IMG/VR virus record: IMGVR_UViG_3300032046_000022 | Coordinates: 3,261-67,260 of that record | From: a virus | DNA length: 64,000 bases | Strand: one strand, 5' to 3' | In this document: positions 7,264 to 33,600 of the stretch, one piece after another | Layout: every line of letters starts with the position of its first letter | Numbering within the stretch: the stretch's first letter is position 1 | The notes under the pieces: model-generated | Seen by the model: the letters and a program-made list of their open reading frames with translations, nothing else | Databases searched by the model: none | Told to the model about the DNA's origin: nothing | Translations under genes and position numbers: made by a program

Positions 7264-7558
7264 AGAATTTCGCGAGGCGCTTCGTCAGCTTACTCGATTA
7301 GAGACCGCAATATATCAAATTGGAGTTGAGCGCCAAAATCTCGAGCGTGAAAAGGCGTTATGCGCTCGAGAGAAATTTAATCTAGAAAAGGAAACGGAGC
7401 TGGCCAGGAGAGAGACAGAGCTGGCTCAGCGGGAGCGTGATATAGAAAAGCAGCGCGCTGACTTTTTCGAGCAGGCATATAAATCTGTTACAAAAAAGCG
7501 GAGCGCCAGCTGCACGTTCAAGAAAATTATCTCGATCACGCTGTGGAAGTGCCATTGA
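7157..7558 (+). CDS. Putative o-spanin (overlapping frame)
   Basis: Overlaps the 3' end of the i-spanin; short hydrophobic N-terminus with Cys, then coiled coil. Confidence 0.4.
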   Translation: MQVLTCFLMLKLLAPCGCSLSETEQSSKPPQTLTNEEFREALRQLTRLETAIYQIGVERQNLEREKALCAREKFNLEKETELARRETELAQRERDIEKQRADFFEQAYKSVTKKRSASCTFKKIISITLWKCH

Positions 7559-11457: not shown

Positions 11458-11471
11458 ACGAGTTTTGGATT

Positions 11472-11826
11472 TTGTGGCGCAGGCATGTGTGCCGGTGGCT
11501 TTCAGTCTGGGTGCTCCATGTAGAGTGGAGGGGCACGCCCGTGCTGATTCCAAGGCTACTGCAATTTCATACCGGCATGGGGTCATGCGATCCCACCTGC
11601 GCCACTCAAGTTGTGGGTGCAGTCCAATGGTGGAGCTAGATAATTCAACAATTAGCCAAATGGTTGAATTGATATCTCACAAGATTGCTCTGGCTGAGGC
11701 GCGTGCCTTACTGCATCCACTCAAGTTGTGGAGACCGTGATGGGAACCAAGCCCCATATAACTGATGCAAGAGGGATACTTGCAGATGACGTTATGCCCG
11801 ATCCAGGACACGGGTCTCCACTCAAG
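11472..11826 (+). ncRNA. Tandem array of three structured RNA units (TTGTGG...CCACTCAAG)
   Basis: Three 10-12 bp closing stems with different sequences but identical termini, internal hairpins, no credible ORF. Confidence 0.55.
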
Positions 11827-12062
11827 AATGCCAGCCGACCGGCAGGAGGATGAGATGACAAGGAAGCTGGATACTGATTACTTGGTTCTGAAGCGGTGTA
11901 CGAAGGAACTTCTCAAATCGTCAAATGCGAGAATGCTCAAGGCCAATCTAGAATTCCTCATGGAAAAGTTTGTGATTCATCCAGACAAGGAATGGCAACG
12001 GGATTTCTGGTCCAAGCGCAAGTAGCCGCCCGAGCCGCCGTAACGAGTGTGAAGGAGGGGGA

Positions 12063-12494
12063 ATGAGAGATTCTGACACAGAATACATTAAGCGAATGGG
12101 GGATCGGATCGCCGAGCTGGAACGCGATCGGCAGATGTACGTCAACTCCTCGGATCGACTTACGGCTCAGGTGAAGGAGCTGGAGGCCACAATTTCCGAA
12201 AAGGACAAGTGCCTATATGAACTGGAGGATGAGATCATTCGTTTACAGCCCATAATAGACGCAGAGAACAAGCGCATCGCGGAGCTGGAGGCCGAGCTTG
12301 CAAAGATCAGGGCGCGAACTTGCAAGGCGTGCGCTCACTGGTACGACGAGTACCACGATGGATTTGCTACCTGCTCCAAGTGGTCCTCCTACTCGTTACC
12401 GGCTGATCCGAGATGCGGCGGTACACACTACGTCAAGACAGGTAAAGATGGATTCTGCTACCTTTGGGCTGAGAAAGAATCGGAGAGCGTATGA
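12063..12494 (+). CDS. Coiled-coil + Cys-rich hypothetical protein
   Basis: RIAELE repeats, CxxC. Confidence 0.55.
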   Translation: MRDSDTEYIKRMGDRIAELERDRQMYVNSSDRLTAQVKELEATISEKDKCLYELEDEIIRLQPIIDAENKRIAELEAELAKIRARTCKACAHWYDEYHDGFATCSKWSSYSLPADPRCGGTHYVKTGKDGFCYLWAEKESESV

Positions 12495-12742
12495 GTCACC
12501 CCTTCATAGTCAAGATCAGTCTAGACAAGGCAGAAGTTCGCATCGCGGGGCTGGAGGCTGAGAATCTTGCCCTAGTGAAGATGCTCAAAAGGTACGAGTG
12601 GCAGTTCTTCGAGGGGGGAGTTGGATATCCCAACGATGAAGAGACTTGTGCTATTTGTGAGGCGAAGCGGAGTGAGGGACATACCGAGGACTGTGCTTAC
12701 AATAAGTTGATGAAGAGTCCTACAGCGAGGGCGGGGAAATGA
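12491..12742 (+). CDS. Hypothetical Zn-finger protein
   Basis: CAIC...GHTEDC. Confidence 0.5.
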   Translation: MSHPFIVKISLDKAEVRIAGLEAENLALVKMLKRYEWQFFEGGVGYPNDEETCAICEAKRSEGHTEDCAYNKLMKSPTARAGK

Positions 12743-12835
12743 GTGAAGGGGAATGCAGCCGAGAAGAACAGGAAACTTTTCAGGCCGAAAATACGCCTGT
12801 CGAATCTAATGGAATTTGAAAAGGAGGATGCCGAG

Positions 12836-13333
12836 ATGAAGATGACTTTTCAGGAATTCACTTTGAAGTATCGTGGGGCGTACAAGAGCGACGGACAACC
12901 ATATGTGTTTCCAGCTGACATCGATGCTGTGGCCGGAAGTACGGGACTCGATAAGGCGCAGATAGTTGAGTGGATTTCGGCGTGGTACGAGATACAAGCG
13001 GCGTATGTCAAAGAGAGAAATTGTATGCCATCTATTAAGGAGATCATTGCCGAGTACAATCGCGCTCACGGAATAGTGGAGCCATCTCCGCCTCCTCCTA
13101 TTGTCCCGATCGCGGTCCCGCCAAGAGATCCGGCCGCGACGGTGGGCACGATGTTTGGCAGATATCAGCCACCGCGCACGGTGCCAACGGGCGTGGTGTG
13201 TTTGGCTCAGCTTACGGTGGATCAGTTTGTGGTGCTTATGCACGAGCTGATGGATCAGCATTCTGCTCCGGTTGTAGACGAGAAGGTCGCGATGCGAGCG
13301 AAATTACAGGCGGCGCTGGCGGCGCTGGAGTAG
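12836..13333 (+). CDS. Hypothetical protein
   Basis: AGGAGG RBS before ATG 12836. Confidence 0.55.
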   Translation: MKMTFQEFTLKYRGAYKSDGQPYVFPADIDAVAGSTGLDKAQIVEWISAWYEIQAAYVKERNCMPSIKEIIAEYNRAHGIVEPSPPPPIVPIAVPPRDPAATVGTMFGRYQPPRTVPTGVVCLAQLTVDQFVVLMHELMDQHSAPVVDEKVAMRAKLQAALAALE

Positions 13334-13377
13334 TAATTTGGACAGTGGAAATCCCTTGGTGCAGATCGGAGAATAAG

Positions 13378-13887
13378 ATGGATTGGTTAAACTGGAAAAG
13401 TATCGCAACAACTCTGGCGCTGGGTGCTTTGGGCGTATGCGGTAATTGGGCGAAAGGAACTTATAACGAGTACAAGAACGTAGTCACCAGTATCAATGCG
13501 CACATGGTCGAGGAGGCGCAGCAGCAACAACAACAAATCGAGACCAGAGCGTTGCTTAAGCAGATCGCGGCGGACATAGGCGACGTGAAGAAGATGACAT
13601 TGACTATCATGGGTGTGGCGAAGGTTCAGAGTGATGGCGGAGACGAGGCGAGCGCTCTCGTCAATCTAAACGGTCGCGCCATGATGTATAAAGAAGGACA
13701 GCGCGTGCGCGTGACTAACATGGTGTCGGCAGAGCAGGAATCTGTGATCGTCAAGATAAATGGCACGTTCACGATGCCAGACGAGGATAAACTTCTGTTG
13801 TTGTCGAAGAAGGCTGGGGCGATGCTTAGTCTCCAGCCGAATCAAGTGGCGAGAGTCAAGCTGGAGCCTGTATCGGGAGAGAAATAA
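13378..13887 (+). CDS. Membrane-anchored protein with RlpA-like double-psi beta-barrel C-terminus
   Basis: N-terminal hydrophobic helix, coiled coil, VRVTN...SVIVKING...LLLSKKAGAML...VKLE. Confidence 0.5.
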   Translation: MDWLNWKSIATTLALGALGVCGNWAKGTYNEYKNVVTSINAHMVEEAQQQQQQIETRALLKQIAADIGDVKKMTLTIMGVAKVQSDGGDEASALVNLNGRAMMYKEGQRVRVTNMVSAEQESVIVKINGTFTMPDEDKLLLLSKKAGAMLSLQPNQVARVKLEPVSGEK

Positions 13888-14551
13888 TGGAGAAATTTTG
13901 GTATCAGTTGGCGTGGTGTCTGCCGCGCCGGTTGGCGTATTGGTGCTTTGTTAGAGTTGCATCTCACGCCACAGCTGGTCGGTGGAGCAGCGAAATTCCT
14001 GACAATGTTTCGATAGTGACCGCTGCTGGTCGGTGGAAGGAATGAGGTGCGATGCCAATAATCAAAATATGTACTGAGGATGGGCGGGAAGTTGCAGTTA
14101 TTGATCCTGAAAAAGTAGGAGAGTGGAAAAAGACGATAAACGTGATTAGGGATGCTTGTGGCGAAGTCTGGGAGAAGGAGGAGAAAGAAAATGATGGTCC
14201 GAGAACTTTGGCTGGCAATTCCGACACGGACTAAGTCAGCAGTCAGATGGGCTGCGCTCGGATTCTTACTTGGACAGCTTATGGGGACGATCAATACGAT
14301 TCTGGCGGGCGTCGCATTGTTCCTTCGACTGAGGTGTGGATTATGATGGAATGTCGCTGGTGTCTGAAGATGGCGGAGACGAGTGGGCTGATAGTCGAGT
14401 TTGGTCGGAAATATCAAAGAAAAAGGAATATCCAAATTTGCGCGCCGTGTAAGATAAAGGCATTCGCAAGGCCGAAGCCGATAGAGTCCTTTCTCGAGGC
14501 AGGTTTGGCTGTGAGTCGGTCCTTCATTATATATAAGGCAGAGAAGACGGC

Positions 14552-15424
14552 GTGAACGCGGAACAGGTAATTTCTGGGCAACCGAGAGCGCATCGTGGCA
14601 CCGGAGGCGAGTGGACTATTCTGTGTCCATGGCATCAGGAGCATTCGCCCAGCTGTTGCGTGAATGTCGACAAGAAGGTTTTCATTTGTCACGGCTGCGG
14701 CGAAAAGGGCCGGCTCACAAAGCTGATCGCGCGTCTTCAAAACATAACGTGGAACGAAGCGGCGCGAATCGCTGATGAGGCTGTTCATTTTTATAGTAAG
14801 GAAATCGAATCAGGAAAAATTCAATTGCCGAAGGAATTCAGCCGCCTCCCTCGCGGTGGACATTTCGGGCAAATTGCTATGAGTTATCTTGCTGGCCGGC
14901 GGATCACCCAGGAGCAAGTGGTCCGGCATGGAATTGGATTTTGCATCACCGGAAAATATGCCTTTCGAATTATCGTGCCGATTCGTCTGAACGGTGCGCT
15001 GGTGAGTTTTGTTGCGCGCGATTTCACCGGCAAAGCGGAGCGCAAGGTCCGCTATCCAATAGGCGCTCGAGCGGCAGAAGCGATTTTCAATTATGATGCA
15101 GCGCTCGCTCACGCGAAAACTGTCGTGATAACAGAAGGCTGGGCGGACGCGCTTGCGGTCGAGCGCGTTATTCAGCGTGATGGAGTTCTTAATTCTTGGA
15201 CTGCGACCGCAATTGGTGGGAAGGAATTGACGATCGAAAAACGGGAATTGTTTCGACAATTCAAAAATTTTTTGATTGTGCTTGATAGAGATGCAGCGCG
15301 TGAGGCGGCACTTATGCGAGAGCAGCTGGATGCTTTTCGCAATGTGGCAGTGCGCATCGTTTCGGTGACGGCAAAAGACCCGGCAGAAGAGTCTGAAGAG
15401 AGTTTGATAACACTTTTGAGGTGA
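14552..15424 (+). CDS. DNA primase (CHC2 zinc finger + TOPRIM)
   Basis: CPWHQEHSPS...CHGCGEKG; TEGWAD; LDRD. Confidence 0.9.
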   Translation: MNAEQVISGQPRAHRGTGGEWTILCPWHQEHSPSCCVNVDKKVFICHGCGEKGRLTKLIARLQNITWNEAARIADEAVHFYSKEIESGKIQLPKEFSRLPRGGHFGQIAMSYLAGRRITQEQVVRHGIGFCITGKYAFRIIVPIRLNGALVSFVARDFTGKAERKVRYPIGARAAEAIFNYDAALAHAKTVVITEGWADALAVERVIQRDGVLNSWTATAIGGKELTIEKRELFRQFKNFLIVLDRDAAREAALMREQLDAFRNVAVRIVSVTAKDPAEESEESLITLLR

Positions 15425-15434
15425 GGGAGGCTGT

Positions 15435-15647
15435 GTGATAGTCGACACGAAAAGTTTGCTGACGCGGCGCGTTGCTGCGGAGTTGTATGGGGTGGCCGCG
15501 CAGGGACTGGATTACTTGATGCGGCGCGGTTATTTGCGTCCGGTTTTTTCGATGGGGCATACGAAATTGTTTTTGCGCCGGGACATTCTCGCTGTAAAAA
15601 AAATGAATCTCCGTCGTGGCCGGCCAAAGCAAAAAAAGGCTGTGTGA
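15435..15647 (+). CDS. Small helix-turn-helix (excisionase-like) protein
   Basis: LLTRRVAAELYGV...RRGYL...RRGRPK; GGGAGG RBS. Confidence 0.6.
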   Translation: MIVDTKSLLTRRVAAELYGVAAQGLDYLMRRGYLRPVFSMGHTKLFLRRDILAVKKMNLRRGRPKQKKAV

Positions 15648-15683
15648 ATTTGTCGAATAATCCGCCGCAAAACTCAGTGAAAT

Positions 15684-15716
15684 AAATGGCCAAAAGTTAT
15701 TTTTTGGCCATTTTTT
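15684..15716 (+). terminator. Rho-independent terminator
   Basis: AAATGGCCAAAA/TTTTGGCCATTT stem plus T run. Confidence 0.7.
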
Positions 15717-15889
15717 GTGTAAAGGTGTGCCCGTAACTGGTTGATTCTTATCAAGATCTGGGACACAAAAAAATGCATCATTTCTGGTGTGTGTTCATGC
15801 ACCTTCTGTGGATCGACACTGTCCGCGAATGCATAAACATTGGAGAAAATAATCCTTTTTATCTGAAAGCATTAGGCGCAAGATAATGG

Positions 15890-16456
15890 TATGAGATACG
15901 AAATACATACAGGGAGGGGGGTGGCGGGAAGCCAAACGAAATAACTCGCGGAAACGCGACCCCAACTGAGGCCGAAAACGGCTGACTGGGGCAACGCCGG
16001 AAGCGGGAAAAAAGAAAGGGCAGAGAGCGCGGTGGCCTCGGCAGATGGTGAAGTCCGGCGGCGAAATTCCGACCGGAGCCAAACTCTCATAAGAGAAAAA
16101 ACCCAGCGGGAAAAGGGGCGGTAAGACGCCAACCGAAAACAAAAAAATCCAGAGCCAAAACAAACGAGACCCCGAAAGCGATGATCCACGAAAGTGGGAA
16201 GCCAGTAGGCAAAATCTCTGAGGCGACGAGCAGACTGAACTGCTTGCAGACCGGTAACAGTCCGGTTACGGACGAAATCTAGGACTCGTGATACTCCATC
16301 CCAGAATAGCAGCGCAGAATCCAAAGCGATTTGAAACTGCGGCACGCGCGAAAAAACGGATCGACGGTAAGATGGACGGGTAGCGAGCGACGGAGAGTAG
16401 AAAAAACTGATGTGGCGAAGACGCGCGAAAGCGCTGAGCCGTCTCTAAAATGAATT
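15890..16456 (+). ncRNA. Candidate large structured ncRNA (about 570-600 nt)
   Basis: No + strand ORF, purine-rich, many hairpins with GAAA-type loops; ends at the first twister ribozyme. Confidence 0.6.
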
Positions 16457-16533
16457 GCAGAGTGGCGGGAAGGAAACGCATTTCCTTTCCGCAAATGCGC
16501 TGGCTCATGGCGAGTCACCGGTCACAAGTCCGG
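16457..16533 (+). ncRNA. Twister ribozyme 1 (circularly permuted)
   Basis: GCAGAGTG-P1 hairpin-AAATGCGC-P3-CCGGTCACAAGTCCGG; A replaces U at the cleavage site. Confidence 0.75.
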
Positions 16534-16542
16534 AAGGAGACT

Positions 16543-17076
16543 ATGGAAAACGAAAAAGTACAGACGCTCGAGGGAACGTTTCGCAAACTGTTTGCTGTGT
16601 CGACGAACTTGCCGCTGAAGCTCGAATGTGATGTGAAGCCAGTGCTGGACGGAAAGATCCGCGAGAACGCTGAGCGGCTCGCTTTCGTCCTGGCCGGCAA
16701 TGCCTATTTTACGATAGAGAATACTCAAAGCGGAAATCGCTTCACGTTCCGCGTGAGCGCGAACAAAAAGGAAAGCGAAGTCACCCATTGGGTCTGTGTT
16801 CTCACCGGACCGGATAATCTTTCCAATTACACTTTCATTGGCTTTATCAAAGCCGGCGAATTCTTCCACAGTCGCAAGGGCGGCATCGGAAACGATGCAC
16901 AGAGCGTTCGAGTTTTTGCTTGGTTCTTCAAGAATCTGAAAGCAAACTCAGTGCCGGAATTCATTTTGTTCTGGCATATGGGGCGATGTTGCCGTTGCGG
17001 ACGTGCTCTTACAGTGCCGGAATCGGTGGCGGCTGGGATCGGTCCTGAGTGCGCCAGCATGGTGTCTGGATTCTAG
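16543..17076 (+). CDS. DUF6011-like Zn-finger protein
   Basis: GRCCRCGRALTVPESVAAGIGPEC; AAGGAG RBS directly after ribozyme 1. Confidence 0.7.
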   Translation: MENEKVQTLEGTFRKLFAVSTNLPLKLECDVKPVLDGKIRENAERLAFVLAGNAYFTIENTQSGNRFTFRVSANKKESEVTHWVCVLTGPDNLSNYTFIGFIKAGEFFHSRKGGIGNDAQSVRVFAWFFKNLKANSVPEFILFWHMGRCCRCGRALTVPESVAAGIGPECASMVSGF

Positions 17077-17149
17077 CAGAGTGGGACCGGTGCTCGACGC
17101 CGGTCTTAATGCGCTGCGCTCATGGTGAGCGCACCGGTCACAAGTCCGG
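17076..17149 (+). ncRNA. Twister ribozyme 2
   Basis: GCAGAGTG-GGACCGG..CCGGTCT-TAATGCGC-TGCGCTCA/TGAGCGCA-CCGGTCACAAGTCCGG. Confidence 0.85.
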
Positions 17150-17160
17150 AGGAGGCTAAG

Positions 17161-17349
17161 ATGAACGCAAAACAGATAAAAGAGATCGCGACGGCGGCGG
17201 CATATTTGAAGTCCGCTGAGGATGAATATTACAAATATCACACCAAGAATAATATGATAGGACTCGCGCTTGCCGATCTTATGAAAAGAGCAAAGCTGAT
17301 CTACGAAGACGCTCTAAAAGGAATTTCGCTTGAGGAGAGCGGTCGATAG
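17161..17349 (+). CDS. Small hypothetical protein
   Basis: GGAGG RBS, between ribozymes 2 and 3. Confidence 0.6.
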   Translation: MNAKQIKEIATAAAYLKSAEDEYYKYHTKNNMIGLALADLMKRAKLIYEDALKGISLEESGR

Positions 17350-17421
17350 CAGAGTGGGTCCGGCGCTCGACGCCGGTCTTAATGCGCGGCTCCATGGTGG
17401 AGCCTCCGGTCACAAGTCCGG
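17349..17421 (+). ncRNA. Twister ribozyme 3
   Basis: Same core with variant P3 GGCTCCA/TGGAGCC. Confidence 0.85.
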
Positions 17422-17444
17422 TTTTTGAAATTGGAGACAAGAAA

Positions 17445-18131
17445 ATGAACGCGAACAATTCTATCATCATCACCGATCGCAACTTGACCACAACCGAAGA
17501 GCAGGCAATTCTCGAAACGGGAATGATGGATCTGGCAGACTTTATGGACACCTTCCAGTATCTGGCCTTTGTGCTTGACGGCTCCGGAAGTATGTTTTGG
17601 GGTATCAATTCAGGCGACGGTCTTAACAAGGTGGAATTGGAGAAGAAGGTTATTCTCCGTTATGCCAAAGATAAGATTGGCGCGAAGGCGGACGGGATGA
17701 AAGTGGCGATCGTCGAGTTTGGCAGCAAGGCCCACATCCATCTTCGTGGCTCCAGTAGTCTGGCGGAAATCGAGGGCGGCGTGAATTTGATCGGGCATAT
17801 GGGCGGCGGAACCAATGCAAGCAAAGGAATCCGCGCTGGCTTGACTCTTCTCAAGAAGGGGAAGGGCATGATTCCGCGAATCATCTTGACGAGCGATGGT
17901 CAGATTCAGGATCTCCATCTTTGTCTCGAAGCGGCAGAACAGGCGAAGAGTGCTGGCGTGATCATCGATACCATTTACATCGGTGGCGGGTCTGAATGCG
18001 ATCACGGGAATGGCGAAATGCTCCGGCGGATCAGTTCAATTACCGGTGGCGTTCACGAGGAGATCACGGGAATGGGTGACTTCGAAGTGAAGTTCCTCAA
18101 GGTTGCGGACCGCATTCTTATCTCCGCATAA
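17445..18131 (+). CDS. von Willebrand factor A domain protein
   Basis: MIDAS DGSGSM, GGTN, LTSDG, IDTIYIG, ITGG. Confidence 0.85.
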   Translation: MNANNSIIITDRNLTTTEEQAILETGMMDLADFMDTFQYLAFVLDGSGSMFWGINSGDGLNKVELEKKVILRYAKDKIGAKADGMKVAIVEFGSKAHIHLRGSSSLAEIEGGVNLIGHMGGGTNASKGIRAGLTLLKKGKGMIPRIILTSDGQIQDLHLCLEAAEQAKSAGVIIDTIYIGGGSECDHGNGEMLRRISSITGGVHEEITGMGDFEVKFLKVADRILISA

Positions 18132-18142
18132 ATCTAATCAGT

Positions 18143-18217
18143 GCAGAGTGGGCTGGAGCAATCGCGCTCCGGCTTAATGCGCTGCGCTCGTGGTGAGCGC
18201 ACCGGTCACAAGTCCGG
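18143..18217 (+). ncRNA. Twister ribozyme 4
   Basis: Same core, P1 GGCTGGAGC/GCTCCGGCT. Confidence 0.85.
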
Positions 18218-18228
18218 AGGAGACTAAG

Positions 18229-18948
18229 ATGAACGCAAAGATGATTTTGAATAAATTGTATTCGTCTTTTTCCAAACAGGCTGACAGTGTAGAGGCGCGA
18301 TGTAGCGCTCTGGTTCAGGCTGTTGGAATTATGACGGGCGTTTGTGGAAGCCTGAAAGTTCTTCAGCTGCGCAATCCAAACGCGATGTACGTTCCTGCGG
18401 ACTCTGAAAAGCTGTGGGATCGCGCGAACAAGTGCAAGGCGCAAGCGATGGGCACAACATTTATTCACGAGAAAGAAGTCTCGCTCAGAATGTGCTTGCT
18501 TACACTTCAGAAGATGGCTGCGAAGGTGAGTCCGCCAAATCTGGAAGATTTTATTGCTAGGCTGGAAGTGAAACAGAAGGCGAAAGCAGAGAAGGTGGCG
18601 CGGGATGTAATCGCAAAAGCAAAGCGCACATCTCCGCGAGCGCCCAAGGTGGTCGGCTCGACTGCGAGTCCACGCTCTGTGAAGTCTACGGGGCATCCGT
18701 CTAATCTGGCTCCGCTTGGTCCAGACGGCGTGCCGCAATGGCGTCCTGGCTCGAGCGCCGATATTATTACTCAAGTCCTTTTCTCGAAACCGCAGATCAC
18801 GAAAGAAGAAGTGGTTGCGGCGGTAACGGGAAAGTTTCAGTCTTCCAATTTGGTTTGTCGCGTCATGATGGTCGCAGGATTTCTGATCAAGTTCGGAAAG
18901 CTGCGCCGCGTGAAAGTGAACGGGAAACCTGGGTGGGAGAGAATCTAA
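18229..18948 (+). CDS. Hypothetical protein with C-terminal winged-helix-like domain
   Basis: C-terminus resembles that of ORF 25539-26189. Confidence 0.55.
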   Translation: MNAKMILNKLYSSFSKQADSVEARCSALVQAVGIMTGVCGSLKVLQLRNPNAMYVPADSEKLWDRANKCKAQAMGTTFIHEKEVSLRMCLLTLQKMAAKVSPPNLEDFIARLEVKQKAKAEKVARDVIAKAKRTSPRAPKVVGSTASPRSVKSTGHPSNLAPLGPDGVPQWRPGSSADIITQVLFSKPQITKEEVVAAVTGKFQSSNLVCRVMMVAGFLIKFGKLRRVKVNGKPGWERI

Positions 18949-18953
18949 TCAGT

Positions 18954-19027
18954 GCAGAGTGGGCTGGAGCAATCGCGCTCCGGCTTAATGCGCGAGCGGG
19001 CTGTCCGCTCACCGGTCACAAGTCCGG
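18954..19027 (+). ncRNA. Twister ribozyme 5
   Basis: Same core, P3 GAGCGGG/TCCGCTC. Confidence 0.85.
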
Positions 19028-19045
19028 AAAATGGAGACAAAGAAA

Positions 19046-19525
19046 ATGACAAAGGAAACGATCGAAGGAATGCTCACGCGAATCGCTTTGGAATTCGACC
19101 GAGATTATCTCAATGAAATTGGGTTGGTGATCGGAGTCAAATTCACGAGATTTTTTAGTGACTGGCGGGAAATGCAGTACGGGCTGTGTGGTGTGACGTT
19201 TGGGATGTATGACGGGAACACGCGAGTCATATATTTGAATGCTTATTTCCACAAGATGCTGGAGCATGGTTTTTTTCTTAGTGAAGTAAAAGGTGTGATT
19301 TTTCACGAGTTGTGCCACGGCGCTCTTTTGAATTCGCTTCAGCCGATTCGACTTGGTATGTATCAGAGTGGACCAGCCGGTGATCATGGACCGGATTTCG
19401 AGGCGCTCGAGCACCGGTATTCCGATTATATTCGCAAGGATCGATTGCAGGCGATGATGCCCGATATTCTGGGCTGGATGCGCCATAACGTTCCGGCGAA
19501 ATTGCGAGAGGAGAGTGGTCGATAG
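19046..19525 (+). CDS. SprT-like zinc metalloprotease
   Basis: IYLN...VIFHELCH...DHGPDF. Confidence 0.75.
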   Translation: MTKETIEGMLTRIALEFDRDYLNEIGLVIGVKFTRFFSDWREMQYGLCGVTFGMYDGNTRVIYLNAYFHKMLEHGFFLSEVKGVIFHELCHGALLNSLQPIRLGMYQSGPAGDHGPDFEALEHRYSDYIRKDRLQAMMPDILGWMRHNVPAKLREESGR

Positions 19526-19598
19526 CAGAGTGGGACCGGTGCTCGACGCCGGTCTTAATGCGCTGCGCTCATGGTGAGCGCACCGGTCACAAGTCCGG
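19525..19598 (+). ncRNA. Twister ribozyme 6
   Basis: Identical to copy 2 over 74 nt. Confidence 0.85.
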
Positions 19599-19615
19599 AA
19601 AACGGAGATAAAAAA

Positions 19616-19870
19616 ATGCCTTTGCTTAGAAACATGACGGATGCTCAGGTGATTGAACGGATCAGCGGTTTGGTTCGGTATGTCAGTAATTGGGTCGACG
19701 GTGAATTGGTGCTTAATGGTTTCGACGGCGCGTATAAAATCGACATCGAAGTAAAAGTGCAGGGAAAGAAAAACGTTGAGCATCTTCGCATGCTGGGTGG
19801 TGTTCTCCAGGAGATCAGTCTGATGATCGACCGGCGTGAGGGATTTCAGCCGAGCGAAGAAGAACTATAA
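19616..19870 (+). CDS. Small hypothetical protein
   Basis: GGAG RBS after ribozyme 6. Confidence 0.6.
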   Translation: MPLLRNMTDAQVIERISGLVRYVSNWVDGELVLNGFDGAYKIDIEVKVQGKKNVEHLRMLGGVLQEISLMIDRREGFQPSEEEL

Positions 19871-19875
19871 GTATA

Positions 19876-19948
19876 GCAGAGTGTGACCGGCGCTCAATGC
19901 CGGTCTTAATGCGCCGACTCAAGGTGGGTCGACCGGTCACAAGTCCGG
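19876..19948 (+). ncRNA. Twister ribozyme 7
   Basis: Same core, P3 CGACTCA/TGGGTCG. Confidence 0.85.
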
Positions 19949-19971
19949 ATTTTGAAATTGGAGACAAGAAG

Positions 19972-20373
19972 ATGGCGACAATTATAGTTGAGTGCGATGC
20001 TTGCGGAACCAAGAACAAGATCGAGGATAGCAAAGCACAGACGGCGCGCTGTGGGCGTTGCCGGAATCCGTTGTTGGACGCGGTCCAAGAACAGCTTGGT
20101 CTTTTTGACGATGACGAAGACGAAGACGAAGACGAAGACGAAGACGAAGACGAAGACGCCGCTGGCGCTTCTCAGCCGCTGGGCAAGATCTTTGCCGGCG
20201 GGACGCTCCCTCATGGGACGAAGTTCACCGGCGCTCAGCCGACGGCGGCGGATGTGATGATGGATTTGTTTGGCGCTTCTGGTCTGAATACTCTGTGCAA
20301 GATTCCGTGCAAGGATTGCGGGCGGATGTTTATCGGACCAGTGACTCAGACGCTGTGCGCGAATTGTGAGTAG
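19972..20373 (+). CDS. Zn-ribbon protein with acidic (DE)n linker
   Basis: CDACGTKN...CGRC; DEDEDE tract; CKDCG...CANC. Confidence 0.65.
   Translation: MATIIVECDACGTKNKIEDSKAQTARCGRCRNPLLDAVQEQLGLFDDDEDEDEDEDEDEDEDAAGASQPLGKIFAGGTLPHGTKFTGAQPTAADVMMDLFGASGLNTLCKIPCKDCGRMFIGPVTQTLCANCE
20113..20157 (+). repeat. (GACGAA)7 coding microsatellite
   Basis: Seven perfect hexamers plus GAC. Confidence 0.95.
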
Positions 20374-20506
20374 AGCGTGCCGGCGCAGAAGGCCGGTGTG
20401 TGTTATGTTTGTGGGAAGATGAAAGAAAAGAAGATGGCGACATCGGCTATGCGCAACTTCTGCGCTCTCCGGTTGGCCAAGAATATGTTTGGTTCTGCTT
20501 AGTTTT

Positions 20507-20579
20507 GCAGAGTGGGACCGGCGCTCAATGCCGGTCTTAATGTGCCGACTCAAGGTGGGTCGACCGGTCACAAGTCCGG
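20507..20579 (+). ncRNA. Twister ribozyme 8
   Basis: Same core, TAATGT variant giving G-U in P2. Confidence 0.8.
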
Positions 20580-20594
20580 AAAATGGAGACGAAG

Positions 20595-21107
20595 ATGCAT
20601 TTTGTAATAGGAGAGTCTGTGCAGTTTAGAGGCCGGCAGGGAAAGGTTGTTCTTGGCGTGGTGTTCTCAGCAAATAGATGTCGCTCCAAATATATGGTTC
20701 GAGCGGGGTCGGGCAAAGTTTATAACGTTCCGGATCGGATGCTTGAATCTGTTCTTGGTGTGAGTGGCGCTGAAGCCGAGAAGATGGTGACGGCTGGTCT
20801 TGATTTTATGGATCGGCGTGCTGAGTTATTCAGGGCGAGTCGTAAGCGAATGGGCGAGTGCATGAAGGATCGCACTGACAAGCTGCGCTCCGGAATGGCT
20901 GTGCAAGTTTATTCGCTCGGGAAATGGAGCCGGACAGAGATCGTTCGCGTTCTTCCGGAAGTTGGCAAGGTTACAGTTCTGAATCCAGCAGCGATTCTGT
21001 ATCATCGTGAGCGGATAGATTCGGCTCTCGACGGTCTGATTTCCAGATTGATGAAGAAACGGAGAGACACCATCACGGTGCTTGCGAATAGAATCTGTGT
21101 GATGTAG
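20595..21107 (+). CDS. Hypothetical protein with two SH3/KOW-like beta domains
   Basis: FVIGESVQF...GVV and LRSGMAVQV patterns; GGAG RBS. Confidence 0.55.
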   Translation: MHFVIGESVQFRGRQGKVVLGVVFSANRCRSKYMVRAGSGKVYNVPDRMLESVLGVSGAEAEKMVTAGLDFMDRRAELFRASRKRMGECMKDRTDKLRSGMAVQVYSLGKWSRTEIVRVLPEVGKVTVLNPAAILYHRERIDSALDGLISRLMKKRRDTITVLANRICVM

Positions 21108-21180
21108 CAGAGTGGGACCGGTGCTCGACGCCGGTCTTAATGCGCTGCGCTCATGGTGAGCGCACCGGTCACAAGTCCGG
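21107..21180 (+). ncRNA. Twister ribozyme 9
   Basis: Identical to copies 2 and 6. Confidence 0.85.
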
Positions 21181-21191
21181 AGGAGACTAAC

Positions 21192-21476
21192 ATGAAGTCA
21201 GTGGCAAAAGGCTACACACGAGCTGAATTCGAGCGCGTGGAGTTGGACGGCTGTGAGTTTGATATTGTCGTGGATTATGCGGCGGCGTGTGTGGATGATT
21301 TTGACATTATCGAAGTGAAATCCGTGGGCGGTTATGGCGTGCCGTGCTCTCTGCGGGGTCTCAAGATCGGAGAGCCGCTCGAGCGATGGGTGGACCGCCA
21401 TCACGCTGGTGTGATTATTGAACTGGCCCAGAACCATCTTGCCGAGCACAGAGAAGACTGGCGATGGGATTCCTAG
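21192..21476 (+). CDS. Small acidic hypothetical protein
   Basis: GGAGGAG RBS after ribozyme 9. Confidence 0.6.
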   Translation: MKSVAKGYTRAEFERVELDGCEFDIVVDYAAACVDDFDIIEVKSVGGYGVPCSLRGLKIGEPLERWVDRHHAGVIIELAQNHLAEHREDWRWDS

Positions 21477-21546
21477 CAGAGTGGACCGGTGTTGAGTGCC
21501 GGTCTAATGCGCCGACTCAAGGTGGGTCGACCGGTCACAAGTCCGG
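21476..21546 (+). ncRNA. Twister ribozyme 10
   Basis: Same core, P1 GACCGGT/GCCGGTC, P3 as in copy 7. Confidence 0.85.
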
Positions 21547-21554
21547 AGGAGACT

Positions 21555-21980
21555 ATGGAAACAGAAAAGTTGAACACGGTGAAATCTCTTTTCGATGTTT
21601 TGAGTCAACTTTTTACGATGCTCGAAATCAAGGTCGATGTGCGAGTGAATTCTGACGACGCAGTCGAAATCGACGGCTGGCTTTGGGCGTATGTCGATAA
21701 GATGACAGAGAGAACGAATGTTATTGGTGGCGTGCGCACGAATTTGTTGTTCGATTGTTTTGTGATTGGTGTTACGAAATATTCGTCGGCCACGCGCTGG
21801 TGTCCGGAAGAATTGGACAGAGCTGAATTGGACAGAGTTCACGGTTCGTATAATGCTGCAAAACGAATGGCTTCGCTGTATTTCGAAAGCAGGGTCGACG
21901 GCGCGCTCGAGCAAGTTGAGTTTGGTCAGTCCGAGATGGATAAGATTGAGATTAAAAAAGCGCTTGATGAGCTACTGTGA
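21555..21980 (+). CDS. Hypothetical protein
   Basis: GGAGGAG RBS after ribozyme 10. Confidence 0.6.
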   Translation: METEKLNTVKSLFDVLSQLFTMLEIKVDVRVNSDDAVEIDGWLWAYVDKMTERTNVIGGVRTNLLFDCFVIGVTKYSSATRWCPEELDRAELDRVHGSYNAAKRMASLYFESRVDGALEQVEFGQSEMDKIEIKKALDELL

Positions 21981-21993
21981 TGAGGGCGCTTAG

Positions 21994-22128
21994 AGGAATA
22001 GAAGGATGCTTGCGGAAAATCCTGATTTGGTTATTGCGTTCCATAGTAATATATCAGCATCAAAAGGAACGCAGAACTGTATCAGCCAAGCGGCGGCGCT
22101 TAGAATCGTGGTCGAGATTATTGAATAG
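21994..22128 (+). pseudogene. C-terminal fragment of a SLOG/DUF2493-like gene
   Basis: RNRRMLAENPDLVIAFHSNISASKGTQNCISQA...VEIIE*, preceded in frame by TAG. Confidence 0.5.
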
Positions 22129-22197
22129 CAGAGTGGAGGCTCCAGCAGATCATCTTCTGCTGTCCTTTAATGCGCTTAGAGCCGGTCACAAGTCCGG
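22128..22197 (+). ncRNA. Twister ribozyme 11 (no P3)
   Basis: GCAGAGTG-P1 (CAGCAGA/TCTGCTG)-TAATGCGCT-TAGA-GCCGGTCACAAGTCCGGC. Confidence 0.8.
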
Positions 22198-22370
22198 CCA
22201 GCAAGTGTGGGCGAACGCGGGCCAAATCCGCAATCGCCAAATCGCTGTCTCCAACAGCGCATTCCGGTGACTGAGCAGGAACATCGGGAAATCGCGTCGA
22301 TTTCAAGGCTCGCGCTTCACCGCGCCGCCATTTCCTGCTCACAAATGCGCTTGTAGAAAAGGAGACTAAA

Positions 22371-22913
22371 ATGGTGAGTGCGACATTTGTGGGTTGTTTC
22401 AAGATTTTGCGGGAAGGTTTGCGTCGCGAGTTGACTCAGCGGGGCCATTTGGTCACGCATTATTTCGAGTCGATGGATGGGCAACCGCTCGCTCTCAATT
22501 TCCAGAATAGCGCAGATGACACAATCACTGTGTTCTGGGGACCGAAGAACAATCGACACAAGCTGGTTGATCCAGACTCGAAGATGCTGGCTGATGCAAT
22601 CGAAAAATCTCTTGACGAAAAGGTTCAGCCTCCGCCGGCGATAAAAAGATCGTCACCGCAACAAGCCGCTGCGCCAAAACAGAAACCGCAACAAGCCGCT
22701 GCGCCAAAACAGAAACCGCAAGGTGGTGTTTTTGTAACAGATGCTGATTATGCCGAGCTGCAGAGATTGCGCTCGATGGCCAATCACGGCGTTTGGATCG
22801 GCAATGCTGTTTATGCCGCGATGAAGGAAGAGATGCGCATCGGCTATGTCCCGATGGAAGCGCGGCAGAAAATAAACACTTCATTTGATAGGTTATGGAG
22901 GATGATGGCGTGA
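22371..22913 (+). CDS. Hypothetical protein with a 10-aa tandem repeat
   Basis: AAGGAG RBS; PQQAAAPKQK x2. Confidence 0.6.
   Translation: MVSATFVGCFKILREGLRRELTQRGHLVTHYFESMDGQPLALNFQNSADDTITVFWGPKNNRHKLVDPDSKMLADAIEKSLDEKVQPPPAIKRSSPQQAAAPKQKPQQAAAPKQKPQGGVFVTDADYAELQRLRSMANHGVWIGNAVYAAMKEEMRIGYVPMEARQKINTSFDRLWRMMA
22655..22721 (+). repeat. 30-bp tandem duplication
   Basis: ACCGCAACAAGCCGCTGCGCCAAAACAGAA x2 plus a partial copy. Confidence 0.9.
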
Positions 22914-24658
22914 TATTAACCTATGATTCTGAGGCGAATATTTTCAAGTTGGAGTCGGCTTACGAAGATAGGGAGATTCCGAAAGCCGCGAATTTTATTT
23001 GGAACAGACTTGTCGAAAAACACTGGGCGACGCAAGATCTCTCGAAGGCGAGAATGCTCGCCCAGTATGCTGATTCGGCTTGTCAAGTTGTACTGAAGGC
23101 CGCGCTGGAAAAACAGGCGGCGATTTTAGAGTTGTCCTCCGCTACATCTGCAGACCTTTCGATTCCTGCTCCTGATGGCCTGGAGTATTATGGCTTTCAG
23201 AAGGCAGGAGTTGCATTCGCTTTGGAGAAGAAGCGCGTTCTGATCGCTGACGAAATGGGTCTTGGTAAGACGATTCAGGTTATTGGCGTTATTAACGCGC
23301 TTCAGACGATTCGGAAAGTTCTCATAATTACCAAGGCATCACTGCGCCTGAATTGGCTTGGCGAAGTCCGCCGTTGGCTTACGAGGAGCCTGTCAGTGGA
23401 ATTGGCGTACAGCGCGATCTGGCCAGTGGCAGATATCATCATTATAAATTATGATATTCTTGTGCGCCACAAAGCGCAGATTGACGCTGTGGATTGGGAT
23501 CTGCTCGTGATGGACGAGTCCCATCTTATCAAGAATCCGAAGGCGCAGCGCACTGCAATGGTTCTGGGGCGCGTTCCTAAAAAACCTGACGAGCCGAAGG
23601 TGTCGGCGATTCGCGCTCGATATGCGATAGCGACAACGGGATCACCAATCGAAAATAGTCCGATCGAGATTTTCGGGATTCTGCGCTATTTGGATGCGCG
23701 GTCGTGGCCGAGTTTTTGGAGTTTTGTCCAGCGCTATTGCGATGCGCACAATGATGGATATGGCTGGGATTTTTCTGGTGCAAGTAATAAGGAGGAGTTG
23801 CAGCGCAAGCTGCGAGAGACGGTCATGATTCGCCGGTTGAAGCGCGACGTTCTCAAGGATCTGCCGGAAAAGCAATATCAAGTGATAGAGATTCCGGTCG
23901 AAGACAGCGGTTTGAAAAAATTTCTTGCGGAAGAATTGAGCGAGTGGAATAGGAAGACTGCCGAATTGCAGACGCTGCGCGAAGCGGTCAAGGCTGCAAA
24001 ACTGGCTGGAAACGAAGATGCCTATCGCCAGCTGGTGGCCGCGCTCGCTGAGGGTTTGAAAGTGAAGTTTGAAGAATTCAGCGAGAAACGCCACGAAACG
24101 GGCGTGCGAAAATTGCCGTATGTGATAGATTATTTGCAGGAAATTATGGAAGAGGAACCGCACAAGGCGCTTGTCTTCGGACATCATCGCGACGTTCTCG
24201 AGCGGCTCCATCGCGAATTCAAAAATTCGCTTCTGATTCACGGTGGCATTCAACCAGATAAGAGGCAAGCAATAGTCGACCGGTTTCAAACTGACGAAAG
24301 TGTGGGTCTGTTTTTTGGCTCGATTGGAGCGGCTGGTGCCGGTCTGAATATGACGGCGGCGAGTCATGTGATTTTTGTAGAAGAAGATGTGGTTCCAGAG
24401 CGCATTCGGCAAGCCGAAGATCGCGCTCACCGAATTGGTCAAAAGAATTCAGTTCTGGTGACTCACCTTGTGCTCGAAGGTTCTCTGGATGCGCATCTCG
24501 CCAAGATTGCGGCTGGGAAAGCAGCCAATATCGAGGTGATTCTGGGGACCAATAACAGCCAATTTGAGCTAATCGAAACCGGTTTGTGGGGAAACCTATG
24601 CGCCGATCCTAAAAAACCCAGCCTTGCCCAGCAGGAGCGTGATGTATGCCCATTTTGA
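22895..24658 (+). CDS. SNF2-family (HARP/SMARCAL1-like) helicase
   Basis: LIADEMGLGKT, DESH, TGSP, QAEDRAHRIGQ. Confidence 0.92.
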   Translation: MEDDGVILTYDSEANIFKLESAYEDREIPKAANFIWNRLVEKHWATQDLSKARMLAQYADSACQVVLKAALEKQAAILELSSATSADLSIPAPDGLEYYGFQKAGVAFALEKKRVLIADEMGLGKTIQVIGVINALQTIRKVLIITKASLRLNWLGEVRRWLTRSLSVELAYSAIWPVADIIIINYDILVRHKAQIDAVDWDLLVMDESHLIKNPKAQRTAMVLGRVPKKPDEPKVSAIRARYAIATTGSPIENSPIEIFGILRYLDARSWPSFWSFVQRYCDAHNDGYGWDFSGASNKEELQRKLRETVMIRRLKRDVLKDLPEKQYQVIEIPVEDSGLKKFLAEELSEWNRKTAELQTLREAVKAAKLAGNEDAYRQLVAALAEGLKVKFEEFSEKRHETGVRKLPYVIDYLQEIMEEEPHKALVFGHHRDVLERLHREFKNSLLIHGGIQPDKRQAIVDRFQTDESVGLFFGSIGAAGAGLNMTAASHVIFVEEDVVPERIRQAEDRAHRIGQKNSVLVTHLVLEGSLDAHLAKIAAGKAANIEVILGTNNSQFELIETGLWGNLCADPKKPSLAQQERDVCPF

Positions 24659-30653: not shown

Positions 30654-33600
30654 ATGGCTGAATTCGTCCACCTACATGTTCACGATCAATATAGCATGCT
30701 GGATGGAATTTGCAAGACCACGGAAATGGTACAGAAGGCAAAGGCGCTTGGATACAAGGCGCTTGCTCAGACTAATCACGGGAATGTCGATGGCGTTGTC
30801 AAATTTTACAAGGAATGCAAAAGGCAGGATGTGAAGCCGATCGTTGGCTGCGAGCTGTATGTGGTCGACAAATTCGAGAAGGTAAAGGGACTCAAACGAT
30901 ATCACACGCTGGCGCTGGCCAAAAACTTTGCTGGCTTTCAGAATATTATGCGGGCGCTCACGGTGGCGAACCAAGAGCAGTTCTACCATCGTCCGCTTTT
31001 GACTTGGGAACAAGTGCTTGGTCTCGAAGATGTGGTGATAATGAGCGCTTGTGTGAGCGGCGTGCTGTCGCATCCGAATTTTGTAGATTTGGTCAAGAAA
31101 TTCAAGAAGAGATTTGGTCAAGACTTTTTTCTCGAGACGCAGCCGATGCTGAACTGGAAGCCGCAGACGGAGGTGTTCAAGAAGGCGCTCGAAATATCAA
31201 AGCGTGTCGGCATTCCGATCGTGGCCACAAACGACATTCACTATCTGAACGAAGACCAAAACACCGCGCACGAGGCGGCGCTTTGTATAGGGCAACATGC
31301 GTTCATGGACGATGCGCGAAACAAGAAACCGCGCTGGAAATTTGATGTCACCGGCTTGTATATGAAAACATCAGCAGAGATGCGAGAGACGCTGGTGGCC
31401 GAAGGTTGTCCGCAGAAGCTGGCTGACCAGATGTTAGAAAACAGTCTCCAGCCGGCAGACCGGTGCAATTTCGAGATTCCTAAAATGCTTGTGAGCCTTC
31501 CGATGCCGAAGCGCTTTGCCCATATCAAAAAACCAGCGGAAAAAATCTTGAGTGATTTGGCGTATGCTGGTCTGGATAAGATGGGCAAGTCTGGCGAGAA
31601 TAAGTATCGTGAGCGGCTCCAACACGAGCTGAATGAAGTCTGCAGTCTGGGTTTTCCGGTTTATTTTCTTGTGCTCACAGACTTGATTTGGTGGTGCAGA
31701 GAACACAATCTGATGGTTGGTCCTGGGCGCGGCTCTGTTGGCGGCAGTCTGCTTGCGTGGTGTCTCGAGATCACAAGCGTTGACTCTGTGGCGTGGAATC
31801 TTTCGTTTGAGCGGTTCATCAGTCCTGGCCGCATAGACTTGCCGGATATAGATGTTGATTTTCAGGACGACCGGCGTGAGGAGATCATCAGTTATTTGCG
31901 CAAGCAATATGGCGAGGAGAATGTGGCGCAGGTGCGCACGTTCAACGAGATGCACGGGAGACAAGCGCTCCGTGATGCCTCGAGAGTTTTTAGTGTCTCG
32001 AACGAAGAAGCCAGCCGTGCTGCCAAGGCGATCATAAAGCGGAGCGGCGGCGATGCGCGGGAGGACTATTCGATCGAGGATGCCTTTTCGCTTTTTGAAG
32101 AGTGCAAAGAATTCAAGCGCAAATATCCAAAGGTGGTAAAGGTTGCGCAAGCGCTCGAGGGAATTATTCGGCAAGGCGGAATACATGCCGCCGGCGTGGT
32201 GGTCTCGAAGGAAACGCTGTATGACGGCAAGCGCTGTGTGGTGATAAACGCGAAGGATAATGTCCGCTCAGTCAATTGGGATAAGCGCGATCTGGATGAT
32301 TTCGGACTGATGAAGCTGGATGTTCTTGGGCTGAGTACGCTGACGGTTCTGTGCAGGGCGAAGGAACTGATAATGGAGAACCACGCCGTGGATGTGGTAT
32401 ACGAAAACATTCCGCTGGATGATCAGAAGGTGCTCGAGAATTTTCGCAAGGGAAACACGATCGGGGTGTTTCAGTTTGGCACGACCGGCTTGAGTGTATA
32501 TTGTCGAGAAGTTGGTATCGAGGATTTTAATCGGCTGGTTGACGTGAACGCGCTCTGGCGTCCTGGCACACTGAAGTCTGGGATGACTACCGAATATTGT
32601 GAGATAAAAAACCAGCACAAAGCGGTCACATCAGTTTCGGAATTTTATGACAAATTGACCGCTGACACTTTCGGGATCATGCTATATCAGGAGCAGATCA
32701 TGCAGGTGTTATACCAAGGTGCGGGCATCGGTTGGCGCACAGTGGACACTATTCGCAAAGTGATTTCAAAAAGCGAAGGAACGGCGAAGCTGGCCAGCTT
32801 CAAAAAGGAATTCATGGACGGCTGCGCTCTCCGGGAAACTATGAGCGAGGAAGAAGCGAGCGCGGTATTTGACAAGATGGTATTTTTCGGCTCGTATGGC
32901 TTCAACAGAAGTCACGCAGTGGCATACACCATGCTCGGCTATTGGACTATGTGGCTGAAAGTTTATTATCCGACAGAATTTTATTGTTCGCTGATAAACT
33001 TCGCCACTATCGACAAGCGTACCGAATACGTTGATGATGCGCGCAAGAACGGTGTCAAGGTTTTGCTGCCGGACATAAACTTTTCCGACAAGAATTGGAA
33101 AATAGATGGACTGAATACCTTGCGTGCTGGCTTGAATAGCGTGTCCTCAGTTTCCGACCGCTCTGCAAACGAGATCATTCGGGCGCGTGCGAGCAAGTGG
33201 ATCGATCTTGAATCATTTCTGAAAGCGGTGCCGCGTCGTGTCGTGAATAAGCGCGTGGTGCAGAACCTTGGTCGTGCCGGCGCTCTCCGATCCTTGTGTG
33301 TTGGCGTGCTGTCAAGTCAGAATATAGATGAAGTGTTTGGCGGCAAATTCGAGTTGGATCCAGACGACGAGGCGGAGGCTGTGCTTAGATTGGTTGGCGA
33401 CGTTGTTGATTTTAGTCCGTCTTCTGATCCGTTGTATAGAATCTCTGCACTTGTGCGACGTGTAAAAAAAAGGATCGAATTGCAGACGGTGAAGAGTGTG
33501 CTCAACAAAGAATTGGCTGGCGGCTCCGAAGCGAATTTTATCGGGCGCATCGACAAAATCAAATACGGATATCGCGATCGCATAACGAAAGACGCGACAA

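Follow-up and report, generated by a model that had tools for sequence, protein, structure and literature searches.

Probable sequence exchange among the twister ribozymes that punctuate an accessory operon of an uncultured phage

The DNA analyzed here is a 64,000-nucleotide stretch of viral origin (hereafter the window, to which all coordinates without a locus name refer), corresponding to bases 3261-67260 of the 67,260-bp IMG/VR virus record IMGVR_UViG_3300032046_000022, which is linear and 84% complete. By scanning the window with the Rfam covariance model RF02684, a total of 11 Twister-P5 ribozymes were identified, all on the + strand between 16456 and 22197 and with scores of 39.8-46.7 bits (11/11 copies over the gathering score of 37.6). 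No Twister-P5 was detected outside this 11-copy array by the Rfam scan of the whole 67,260-bp record. The reading that we favor, with a probability of roughly two-thirds, is that these twister ribozymes punctuate an old and largely collinear accessory operon, that the ribozyme copies recombine with each other, and that gene units are occasionally moved.

The array is flanked by genes for a primase and a small helix-turn-helix (HTH)-like protein on its upstream side, and by gK and the gene for an SNF2 helicase on its downstream side. The ten cassette genes in between, gA to gJ, include one each of the DUF6011, vWA, and Zn-ribbon types and seven without family. Genes and ribozymes are closely packed. 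The ATG of a small gene is located 8-23 nt past the ribozyme end for copies 1-10, and for copies 2-11 the preceding stop codon ends between 10 nt before the ribozyme and 2 nt inside; in 6/10 junctions the stop codon is a TAG, of which the AG forms the first two bases of the ribozyme.

From left to right, and always on the + strand, copy 1 (16456-16533; 39.8 bits), with unique P1 and P3 stems, precedes gA, coding for a DUF6011 protein (16543-17076; PF19474, E=5.5e-13; phrog_20259). Copy 2 (17075-17149; 46.7 bits), which is identical to copies 6 and 9, is followed by gB (17161-17349), of which the 62-aa product starts with MNAK and ends with EESGR-stop, and copy 3 (17348-17421; 43.3 bits) by gC (17445-18131), carrying a vWA domain (PF00092, E=4e-12) and having homologues in the related phages G001, G002, and G007 described below. 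Copy 4 (18142-18217), a mosaic of copy 5 in its 5' half and a near-copy of copy 2 in its 3' half, leads to gD (18229-18948; 239 aa, starting with MNAK; homologues in G001, 45-48% identical, and in G002 and G007), and copy 5 (18953-19027), with the P1 arm GGCTGGAG, leads to gE (19046-19525), which has an HExxH motif, ends with EESGR-stop, and has homologues in G002 (40%) and G007. The following Rfam matches are copy 6 (19524-19598), before gF (19616-19870; 84 aa; G002 homologue, 31% identical); copy 7 (19875-19948), before gG (19972-20373), which codes for an N-terminal Zn-ribbon and an acidic D/E repeat (G001 homologue, 57% over 44 aa) and is followed by a 41-aa open reading frame (ORF; 20377-20502); copy 8 (20506-20579), before gH (20595-21107; 170 aa; G002 homologue, 32% identical); copy 9 (21106-21180), before gI (21192-21476; 94 aa); and copy 10 (21475-21546), before gJ (21555-21980; 141 aa), for which a weak homologue was found in G007 (26% over 102 aa, E=2.7e-10). 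A 40-aa ORF (22006-22128) then leads to copy 11 (22127-22197), which has a long P1 and is without P3.

As judged from their sequences, the repeats are almost certainly intact type-P5 twister ribozymes. In a structure alignment of 32 twister copies from three phages (the window, G001, and G002), 93.5% of the stem cells pair, as compared with 30-43% when the 3' partners were slid, and double changes were found at 17/23 paired positions. The stems P1, P2, and P4 and the pseudoknot are present and supported by covariation, while P3 is optional (absent in copy 11). The pseudoknot pair is UA in 23 copies and CG in 3, the switch to CG being found in three G002 copies. The sequences GCAGAG, the T and GC of the (T)AATGC core, and GTC.CAAG are invariant. 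The twisters of G007 (L170 5418-14802, n=15) have the core GCAGAGGG together with the loop GGTCCCAAG, and those of the other three phages have GCAGAGTG together with GGTCACAAG, a covarying pseudoknot pair relative to the G007 version.

When the copies were split at the invariant cores, their P1 and P3 stems could be sorted into types. P1 is of type B in copies 2, 6, and 9, of type B' in copy 3, D in copies 4 and 5, F in copies 7 and 8, and H in copy 10, and is unique in copies 1 and 11; P3 is of type A in copies 2, 6, and 9 (and, with one change, in copy 4), C in copy 3, E in copy 5, and G in copies 7, 8, and 10, and is unique in copy 1 and missing in copy 11. The sequence-only reading that preceded this analysis had described a mixture of P1, P3, and flank variants, and such block-wise combinations were indeed observed. 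The identity of copies 2, 6, and 9, claimed for 74 nt, was found to cover 77 nt when the preceding T and the following A are included. Copy 4 has its P1 in common with copy 5 at 22/22 positions, together with the 11 nt upstream, its P3 is nearly that of copies 2, 6, and 9 (16/17), and copies 7, 8, and 10 have a common P3 (16/16). Downstream of the ribozymes, copies 3 and 7 have 22 nt in common with 1 mismatch, and the match between copies 5 and 8 is exact for 11 nt or, if 1 mismatch is allowed, 16 nt long. The resemblance that had been pointed out between the ends of unrelated genes was also recovered: gB and gE both end with EESGR-stop, the 16 nt before copies 3 and 6 matching with 1 mismatch, and the genes after copies 2 and 4 both start with MNAK, the 22 nt downstream matching with 1 mismatch.

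The shared tracts extend 11-22 nt into the adjoining gene ends and starts. For random anchors, an extension of at least 10 nt with at most 1 mismatch has a P of about 1e-4; among the 55 pairs of window copies, 2 reach such an extension upstream and 8 downstream. The downstream flanks form two classes of ribosome-binding site (RBS), each common to several copies, and their similarity may be partly functional because these flanks hold the RBS, but the tracts entering coding sequence are not accounted for by this function. The otherwise unrelated genes gA and gJ have the same RBS and similar first codons (AGGAGACTATGGAAA…; MENEK and METEK; 16534-16566 and 21547-21578), and the gA homologues of G002 and G007 are located at the gJ end of the array. 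Two candidate arguments were discarded. The sequence GGAGAGTGG just before copy 6 had been considered as the scar of a truncated core, but its 9-mer is matched with one mismatch 14 times in the window outside the copies, which is close to chance by hand estimate; and a strict character incompatibility between P1 and P3 does not hold, the unordered states being compatible, so that the argument rests on block-wise distances.

The block-wise pattern was examined by Fisher tests in pairs chosen post hoc. Copies 4 and 5 differ at 0/43 positions over the upstream tract, core, and P1 but at 9/17 positions in P3 (p=1.6e-6), and copies 2 and 4 differ at 13/22 positions in P1 but at only 2/66 afterwards (p=3.4e-8). 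The same pattern was found in G002 (copy 2 vs copy 11, p=1.1e-8) and in G001 (copy 1 vs copy 3, p=3.1e-9). The pairwise homoplasy index (PHI) was determined with the 3' stem arms taken out, avoiding covariation artefacts, and 0/5000 permutations of the window alignment were as low as the observed value. For 42/47 copies of the four phages, the nearest neighbor is located within the same genome, as compared with a mean of 12.1 and a maximum of 26 after label shuffling. The P4 stems are also specific to each genome: CCGG/CCGG in all window copies, CTGG/CCAG in 14/15 copies of G002, and CAG/CTG or TAG/CTA in all copies of G001. The proposal of recombination between the repeats, made in the sequence-only reading, is thus upheld by the block-wise identity, the PHI of the window, and the predominance of own-genome nearest neighbors, and the copies have very probably swapped sequence with each other by recombination or gene conversion.

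Signatures common to different genomes are kept at two places, at the array edge and after gD. The P1 of copy 1 starts with GCGG, as does that of the first copies of G001 and G002, and the nearest copies of copy 1 in other genomes are reciprocal (B1/W1); the P1 arm GGCTGGAG of copy 5 recurs in two other genomes, in the ribozyme that follows gD (G001) or gD+gE (G002). The survival of these signatures is what incomplete homogenization of an old array predicts. The 11 nt before copies 4 and 5 are coding in gD (…ERI-stop), lie past the stop codon in the vWA gene, and are absent from the vWA gene of G001, which points to transfer from copy 5 to copy 4. In an independent sample, X3, a G>A change was found at 17155, the sole site separating the copy-2 flank from the copy-4 and copy-9 flanks (14 new 31-mers, depth 4.2, one contig); it is a weak hint of exchange.

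At the RNA level, each ribozyme would cut the polycistronic transcript just 5' of the central AAUGC, for copy 2 presumably at 17107^17108, as we take it from the twister consensus. The expected products are single-gene mRNAs. Behind a 5'-OH, each of them would have the P3 and P4 hairpins and then the RBS, and its 3' end would consist of the stop codon, the 5' core, and a P1 hairpin on which a 2',3'-cyclic phosphate is left. Promoter and terminator scans of the array gave no enrichment, promoter-like sites numbering 5 against 4.7 expected in 7.7 kb, with none inside a ribozyme. In G007, one RBS consensus, AAAAAGGAGAGAACAACATG, follows many copies despite their differing ribozymes. The gE homologue of G002 (L153 reverse strand, reverse-complement 6852-7301) lacks a stop codon ahead of the ribozyme and continues for 23 nt inside it, the last residues …QQSGLES-stop being encoded by the ribozyme core and the P1 5' arm. 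The common twister-P5 consensus pattern was found in more than 119 stretches of IMG/VR contigs, with several contigs carrying at least 3 copies among the matches listed, suggesting that ribozyme-punctuated operons are frequent in uncultured phages.

Upstream of the array, the primase gene (14552-15424) and the gene for the small conserved protein read as HTH-like, which is without a Pfam family (15435-15647), are followed by a purine-rich, non-coding leader of ~800 nt on the + strand (15648-16455), which reaches to copy 1 and is without a credible ORF. A terminator-like hairpin with 13 pairs and a T tract is located just past the HTH gene (15684-15713). A gap of about 550-800 nt is present at the equivalent place in G001 and G002 (including L001 5131-5695), and the leader could hold the operon promoter or a structured RNA. 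On the other side, a non-coding spacer of 173 nt (22198-22370) separates copy 11 from the conserved downstream anchors gK (22371-22913, + strand) and the SNF2 helicase gene (22895-24658, + strand). The last ribozyme is followed by a spacer of similar length in G001 and G002 too, and the last copy of G007 measures 97 nt, its P1 being very long. A second variable region, without twister ribozymes, is located at 11465-14435, where ~3 kb of unique ORFs lie between the genes for the replicative helicase and the primase, which are adjacent in G001 and G002. The DnaE-type polymerase (30654-34451) carries a C-terminal uracil-DNA glycosylase domain (PF03167 at residues 1115-1255).

Relatives with an array at the same locus are G001 (51,887 bp, 65% complete), G002 (81,032 bp, complete), and G007 (82,928 bp, complete; located via its DUF6011 cassette), with SNF2 proteins about 51%, 52%, and 40% identical to that of the window, respectively. 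The number of ribozyme copies is 11 in the window, 6 in G001, 15 in G002 (14 over the cut-off), and 15 in G007 (12 over the cut-off). With each ribozyme between genes marked by a slash, the order in the window is gA / gB / vWA / gD / gE / gF / gG / gH / gI / gJ, and that in G001 is a / vWA / gD / gG / HNH-like plus 2. In G002 the order is five ribozyme-separated small ORFs / vWA / gD+gE / x / gF / gH / 2 ORFs / ORF plus gA-like plus Zn-ribbon / x / HNH-like, and in G007 it is four ribozyme-separated ORFs / vWA / x / gD / Zn-ribbon / gE plus 2 / x / x / gJ-like / 2 ORFs / gA-like plus 1. The gene content of the four phages thus differs in ribozyme-bounded units. The DUF6011 gene is the first in the window but is located in the 12th block in G002 and in the last block in G007, the gA homologues being 51% (G002) and 47% (G007) identical. 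The Zn-ribbon gene is also located at differing places, as judged from short-domain similarity only. For gB and gI, no homologue was found in G001, G002, or G007.

Other searches added little to this set. Neither megablast of 14000-24000 against GenBank phages nor tblastn of gD gave a match, and the profile search of IMG/VR with gD returned only G001 again. The best cultured relative by SNF2 is Thermus phage MN1 (40% identical), and further SNF2 protein matches are P0001 (100% identical, on a 60,418-bp contig), P0002 (63%), and P0003 (59%). The exact P4 16-mer was found in 62 stretches of IMG/VR (56 with a single match and 6 with a double match), about as expected by chance by hand estimate and with no array, and the window-type ribozyme pattern was found in JGI metagenomes on 6 short unrelated contigs.

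A candidate recombinase is the phage RecA homologue (36359-37249, + strand; PF00154, E=7.6e-53), of which the homologues in G001 and G002 are 60-62% identical. DnaE is encoded by the phage as well, and so are a Metallophos and an AAA_23 protein, the last two being read as Mre11/Rad50-like. Tyrosine recombinases (PF00589) gave 0 matches in the 67-kb record, which is 84% complete (control genomes, 14/14), and serine recombinases (PF00239) gave 0 matches in the same record. Joints in samples were read from Logan contigs (k=31). In sample X2, two joints that go back, 19571>18191 and 21504>19907, have the geometry of circles or tandem duplications; they were rejected as evidence of circles, every 31-mer and 33-mer being already present in the reference order at a depth of about 4, and may therefore be assembly-graph paths. 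The GAC/GAA (Asp/Glu) repeat in gG (20100-20160) draws contigs of many organisms, with a summed depth of 180-380 in four runs; this repeat gave rise to the 20159>21895 joint as well as to a pile-up (19939-20205), and both were discarded.

The sequence-only reading had gone on to propose that recombination adds, removes, and reorders cassettes, to be judged by gain and loss among relatives. Part of this stands: content differs unit by unit, the DUF6011 gene has moved, and a common order and content throughout the relatives was not found. The backbone is nevertheless collinear, some of the breaks are located at junctions without a ribozyme, and the relatives are too distant for breakpoints to be placed inside the repeats. 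To speak of a shuffled array was too strong, 5/6 families common with G002 being collinear, and the likening to an integron is not supported, as nothing like a site-specific machinery, including a tyrosine or serine recombinase, was found and the order is conserved. That exchange between copies drives the gain, loss, and relocation of cassettes is conceivable at somewhat less than even odds.

A number of observations weigh against the reading of an operon with recombining ribozymes and moving gene units. The backbone vWA-gD-gE-gF-gH is collinear with G002 and vWA-gD-gE-gJ with G007, and the order kept by 5/6 gene families common with G002 would arise with P=0.036 if the order were random. Of the cassette genes, 8/10 have a homologue in one relative or more (7 in G001/G002 and gJ in G007), as compared with 36/100 crude ORFs in a genome-wide comparison (made at a stricter E-value and with G001 only 65% complete), so that the array does not stand out as plastic on this rough measure. 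Breaks in synteny are also located at ribozyme-free junctions, gD and gE overlapping in G002 and the gA-like gene of this phage being inside a three-ORF block. Since the relatives are only ~39-52% identical in SNF2, no breakpoint is placeable at the nucleotide level or inside a repeat, and no close relative with a different gene order was found in the collections searched. No paralogous genes were found within an array, tandem duplication of whole units being not evident, and no compositional foreignness indicative of recent import was detected (GC content, 0.44-0.56 for cassettes and 0.446-0.601 for other genes). With respect to the ribozyme copies, the pairs for the Fisher tests were selected after data inspection, the effect sizes being large; PHI is weak in G002 (p 0.002-0.16) and G001 (0.04-0.22); and the copies of the G007 array are heterogeneous, with a mean identity of 0.66 and not one near-identical pair, indicating that homogenization is no general rule and that uniformity is not needed for function. 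No RNA runs containing the stretch were found.

Among the alternatives, an integrase-free platform resembling an integron, with active shuffling by frequent excision of cassettes as circles, reinsertion, and reordering, would agree with the 77-nt identical direct repeats 2.4 and 1.6 kb apart, with the encoded RecA, with the differing content and the moved DUF6011 gene among relatives, and with the circle or tandem-duplication geometry of the two X2 joints, and mini-circles are documented for the analogous promoter early stem-loop (PeSL) repeats (PMC2839356). It is nonetheless unlikely, for the X2 joints hold 0 31-mers absent from the reference order at a depth of about 4, the backbone order has been kept across ~39-52% SNF2 identity, the searches gave no close relative in which the order differs, and no recombination site apart from the ribozyme and no site-specific recombinase were identified. 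Less probable than this is a copy-and-paste process, in which a unit of ribozyme and RBS was inserted repeatedly before pre-existing genes and the shared flanks represent the inserted unit. Such a process would explain the ribozyme between gD and gE of the window, at the place where the G002 genes overlap without one, as well as the two RBS classes of downstream flank and the identity of P1 in 12/15 G002 copies, but it does not agree with shared tracts located inside the preceding gene (copies 3/6 and 4/5; copies 6/14 of G002) and within the initial codons of the gene that follows, nor with P1 and P3 assorting without regard to the RBS flank; neither target duplications nor functions for transposition were detected, and the process is itself a form of between-copy recombination.

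A history of old duplications and divergence without recombination, combined with fast compensatory stem change and selection on the RBS and stop contexts, is very improbable. P1 and P3 are certainly free to vary, with many compensatory changes, and G007 combines a strong common RBS consensus with quite different ribozymes. This history, however, needs 9 changes in a 17-nt stem with none in 43 adjoining positions, and the reverse in other pairs, and leaves unexplained why three dispersed copies are identical over 77 nt, why arrays in homologous positions have genome-specific P4 stems, and why identity extends into unrelated coding sequence. The least probable of all is that the repeats misled the assembly, yielding chimeric ribozymes or a wrong cassette order. 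The Logan k=31 contigs of the likely source sample do break at most ribozyme copies, and alternative paths exist in another sample, but the exchange cores of 8-17 nt are too short for collapse at usual k, the contigs of sample X1 span copies 3, 5, and 11 fully with both unique flanks and 0 differences, the window order is collinear with G002 and G007, and a like mosaic is present in three independently assembled phages.

Under the favored reading, in which the ribozymes punctuate an old operon and recombine with each other, the operon would belong to an uncultured sediment phage lineage, and the copies very probably act as dispersed direct repeats of 70-78 nt subject to gene conversion or unequal exchange. 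The points of exchange are located in three near-invariant cores, GCAGAGTG, TAATGCGC, and the P4 hairpin. Exchange of this kind very probably keeps the copies genome-specific, creates the mosaics of P1, P3, and flank, and sometimes carries along 10-22 nt of the adjoining gene, leading to chimeric termini such as EESGR-stop and MNAK. By the same exchanges, a gene unit bounded by ribozymes may now and then be lost, duplicated, brought in, or relocated, the probable agents being the phage's own RecA and the Mre11/Rad50-like proteins. The outcome would be a slow, PeSL-like modular shuffling by homologous recombination and not an integron-like capture. A wider proposal, which we consider speculative and on balance doubtful, is that phage ribozymes do double duty, as RNA cutters of operons and as DNA homology for RecA-type swapping, deletion, import, and relocation of gene units within or between co-infecting phages. 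If true, this would represent an integrase-free cassette system and would explain why ribozymes cluster beside ever-changing small genes. The association of ribozymes with variable phage genes has been used to discover new ribozyme classes, and twister type P5 is said to go back to Roth et al. in 2014.

Hammerhead ribozymes are known to flank single variable genes in prophages, and the cutting of long transcripts into single-gene mRNAs was proposed for them (Perreault et al. 2011; PMC3088659). The same idea of transcript processing is given for twister in a review (PMC6765202), which regards the biological role of the majority of self-cleaving ribozymes in bacteria and phages as unsettled. Neither source discusses recombination in its accessible part, the word occurring 0 times in that of PMC3088659, and no paper on recombination between ribozyme copies in phages was found in a literature search that covered few subscription journals and no supplements. 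[quoted passage not shown]

In concerted evolution by gene conversion, for instance of rRNA operons, paralogues are more alike than positional orthologues. Likewise, ribozyme copies of the same genome are more alike than their positional counterparts, and edge copies escape homogenization, but the units are only 70-78 nt long, the exchange is patchy and module-wise, and it spills into unrelated neighboring genes. Integrons are composed of promoterless single-gene cassettes in one orientation, read from an upstream leader, and their repeats are structured, variable in sequence, and conserved in structure. The present array is similar in that genes of one orientation are separated by sequence-variable, structure-conserved repeats downstream of a leader, but is different in that IntI is lacking, the repeats are functional sense-strand RNAs that can be explained fully as twister ribozymes, and gene order has been kept over long divergence; neither attI nor attC was identified, no attC model having been run. 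The integron appears to be a poor fit because there is no integrase and gene order is conserved, and PeSL shuffling would be the nearest mechanistic analogue.

In T4-type phages, recombination between PeSL repeats is reported to shuffle ORFans and to make mini-circles (Arbiol et al. 2010; PMC2839356). PeSL cassettes are also the topic of Comeau et al. 2014 (PMC4122927). Both systems have short repeated regulatory elements between non-essential ORFan genes of a recombination-proficient lytic phage, and in both, genes are proposed to be inserted, deleted, or replaced through homologous recombination between the repeats. PeSLs are, however, sigma-70 promoters and terminators, whereas the repeats here are RNA-processing ribozymes without promoter-like content, and the breakpoints and circles of PeSLs were demonstrated with near-identical phages and the polymerase chain reaction, whereas the evidence here comes from distant genomes and contigs. 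An array conserved in four phages, with apparently concerted, block-wise exchange of ribozymes reaching into the adjoining genes, may offer a testable route from ribozyme punctuation to modular gene turnover, in parallel to the PeSLs of T4-type phages.

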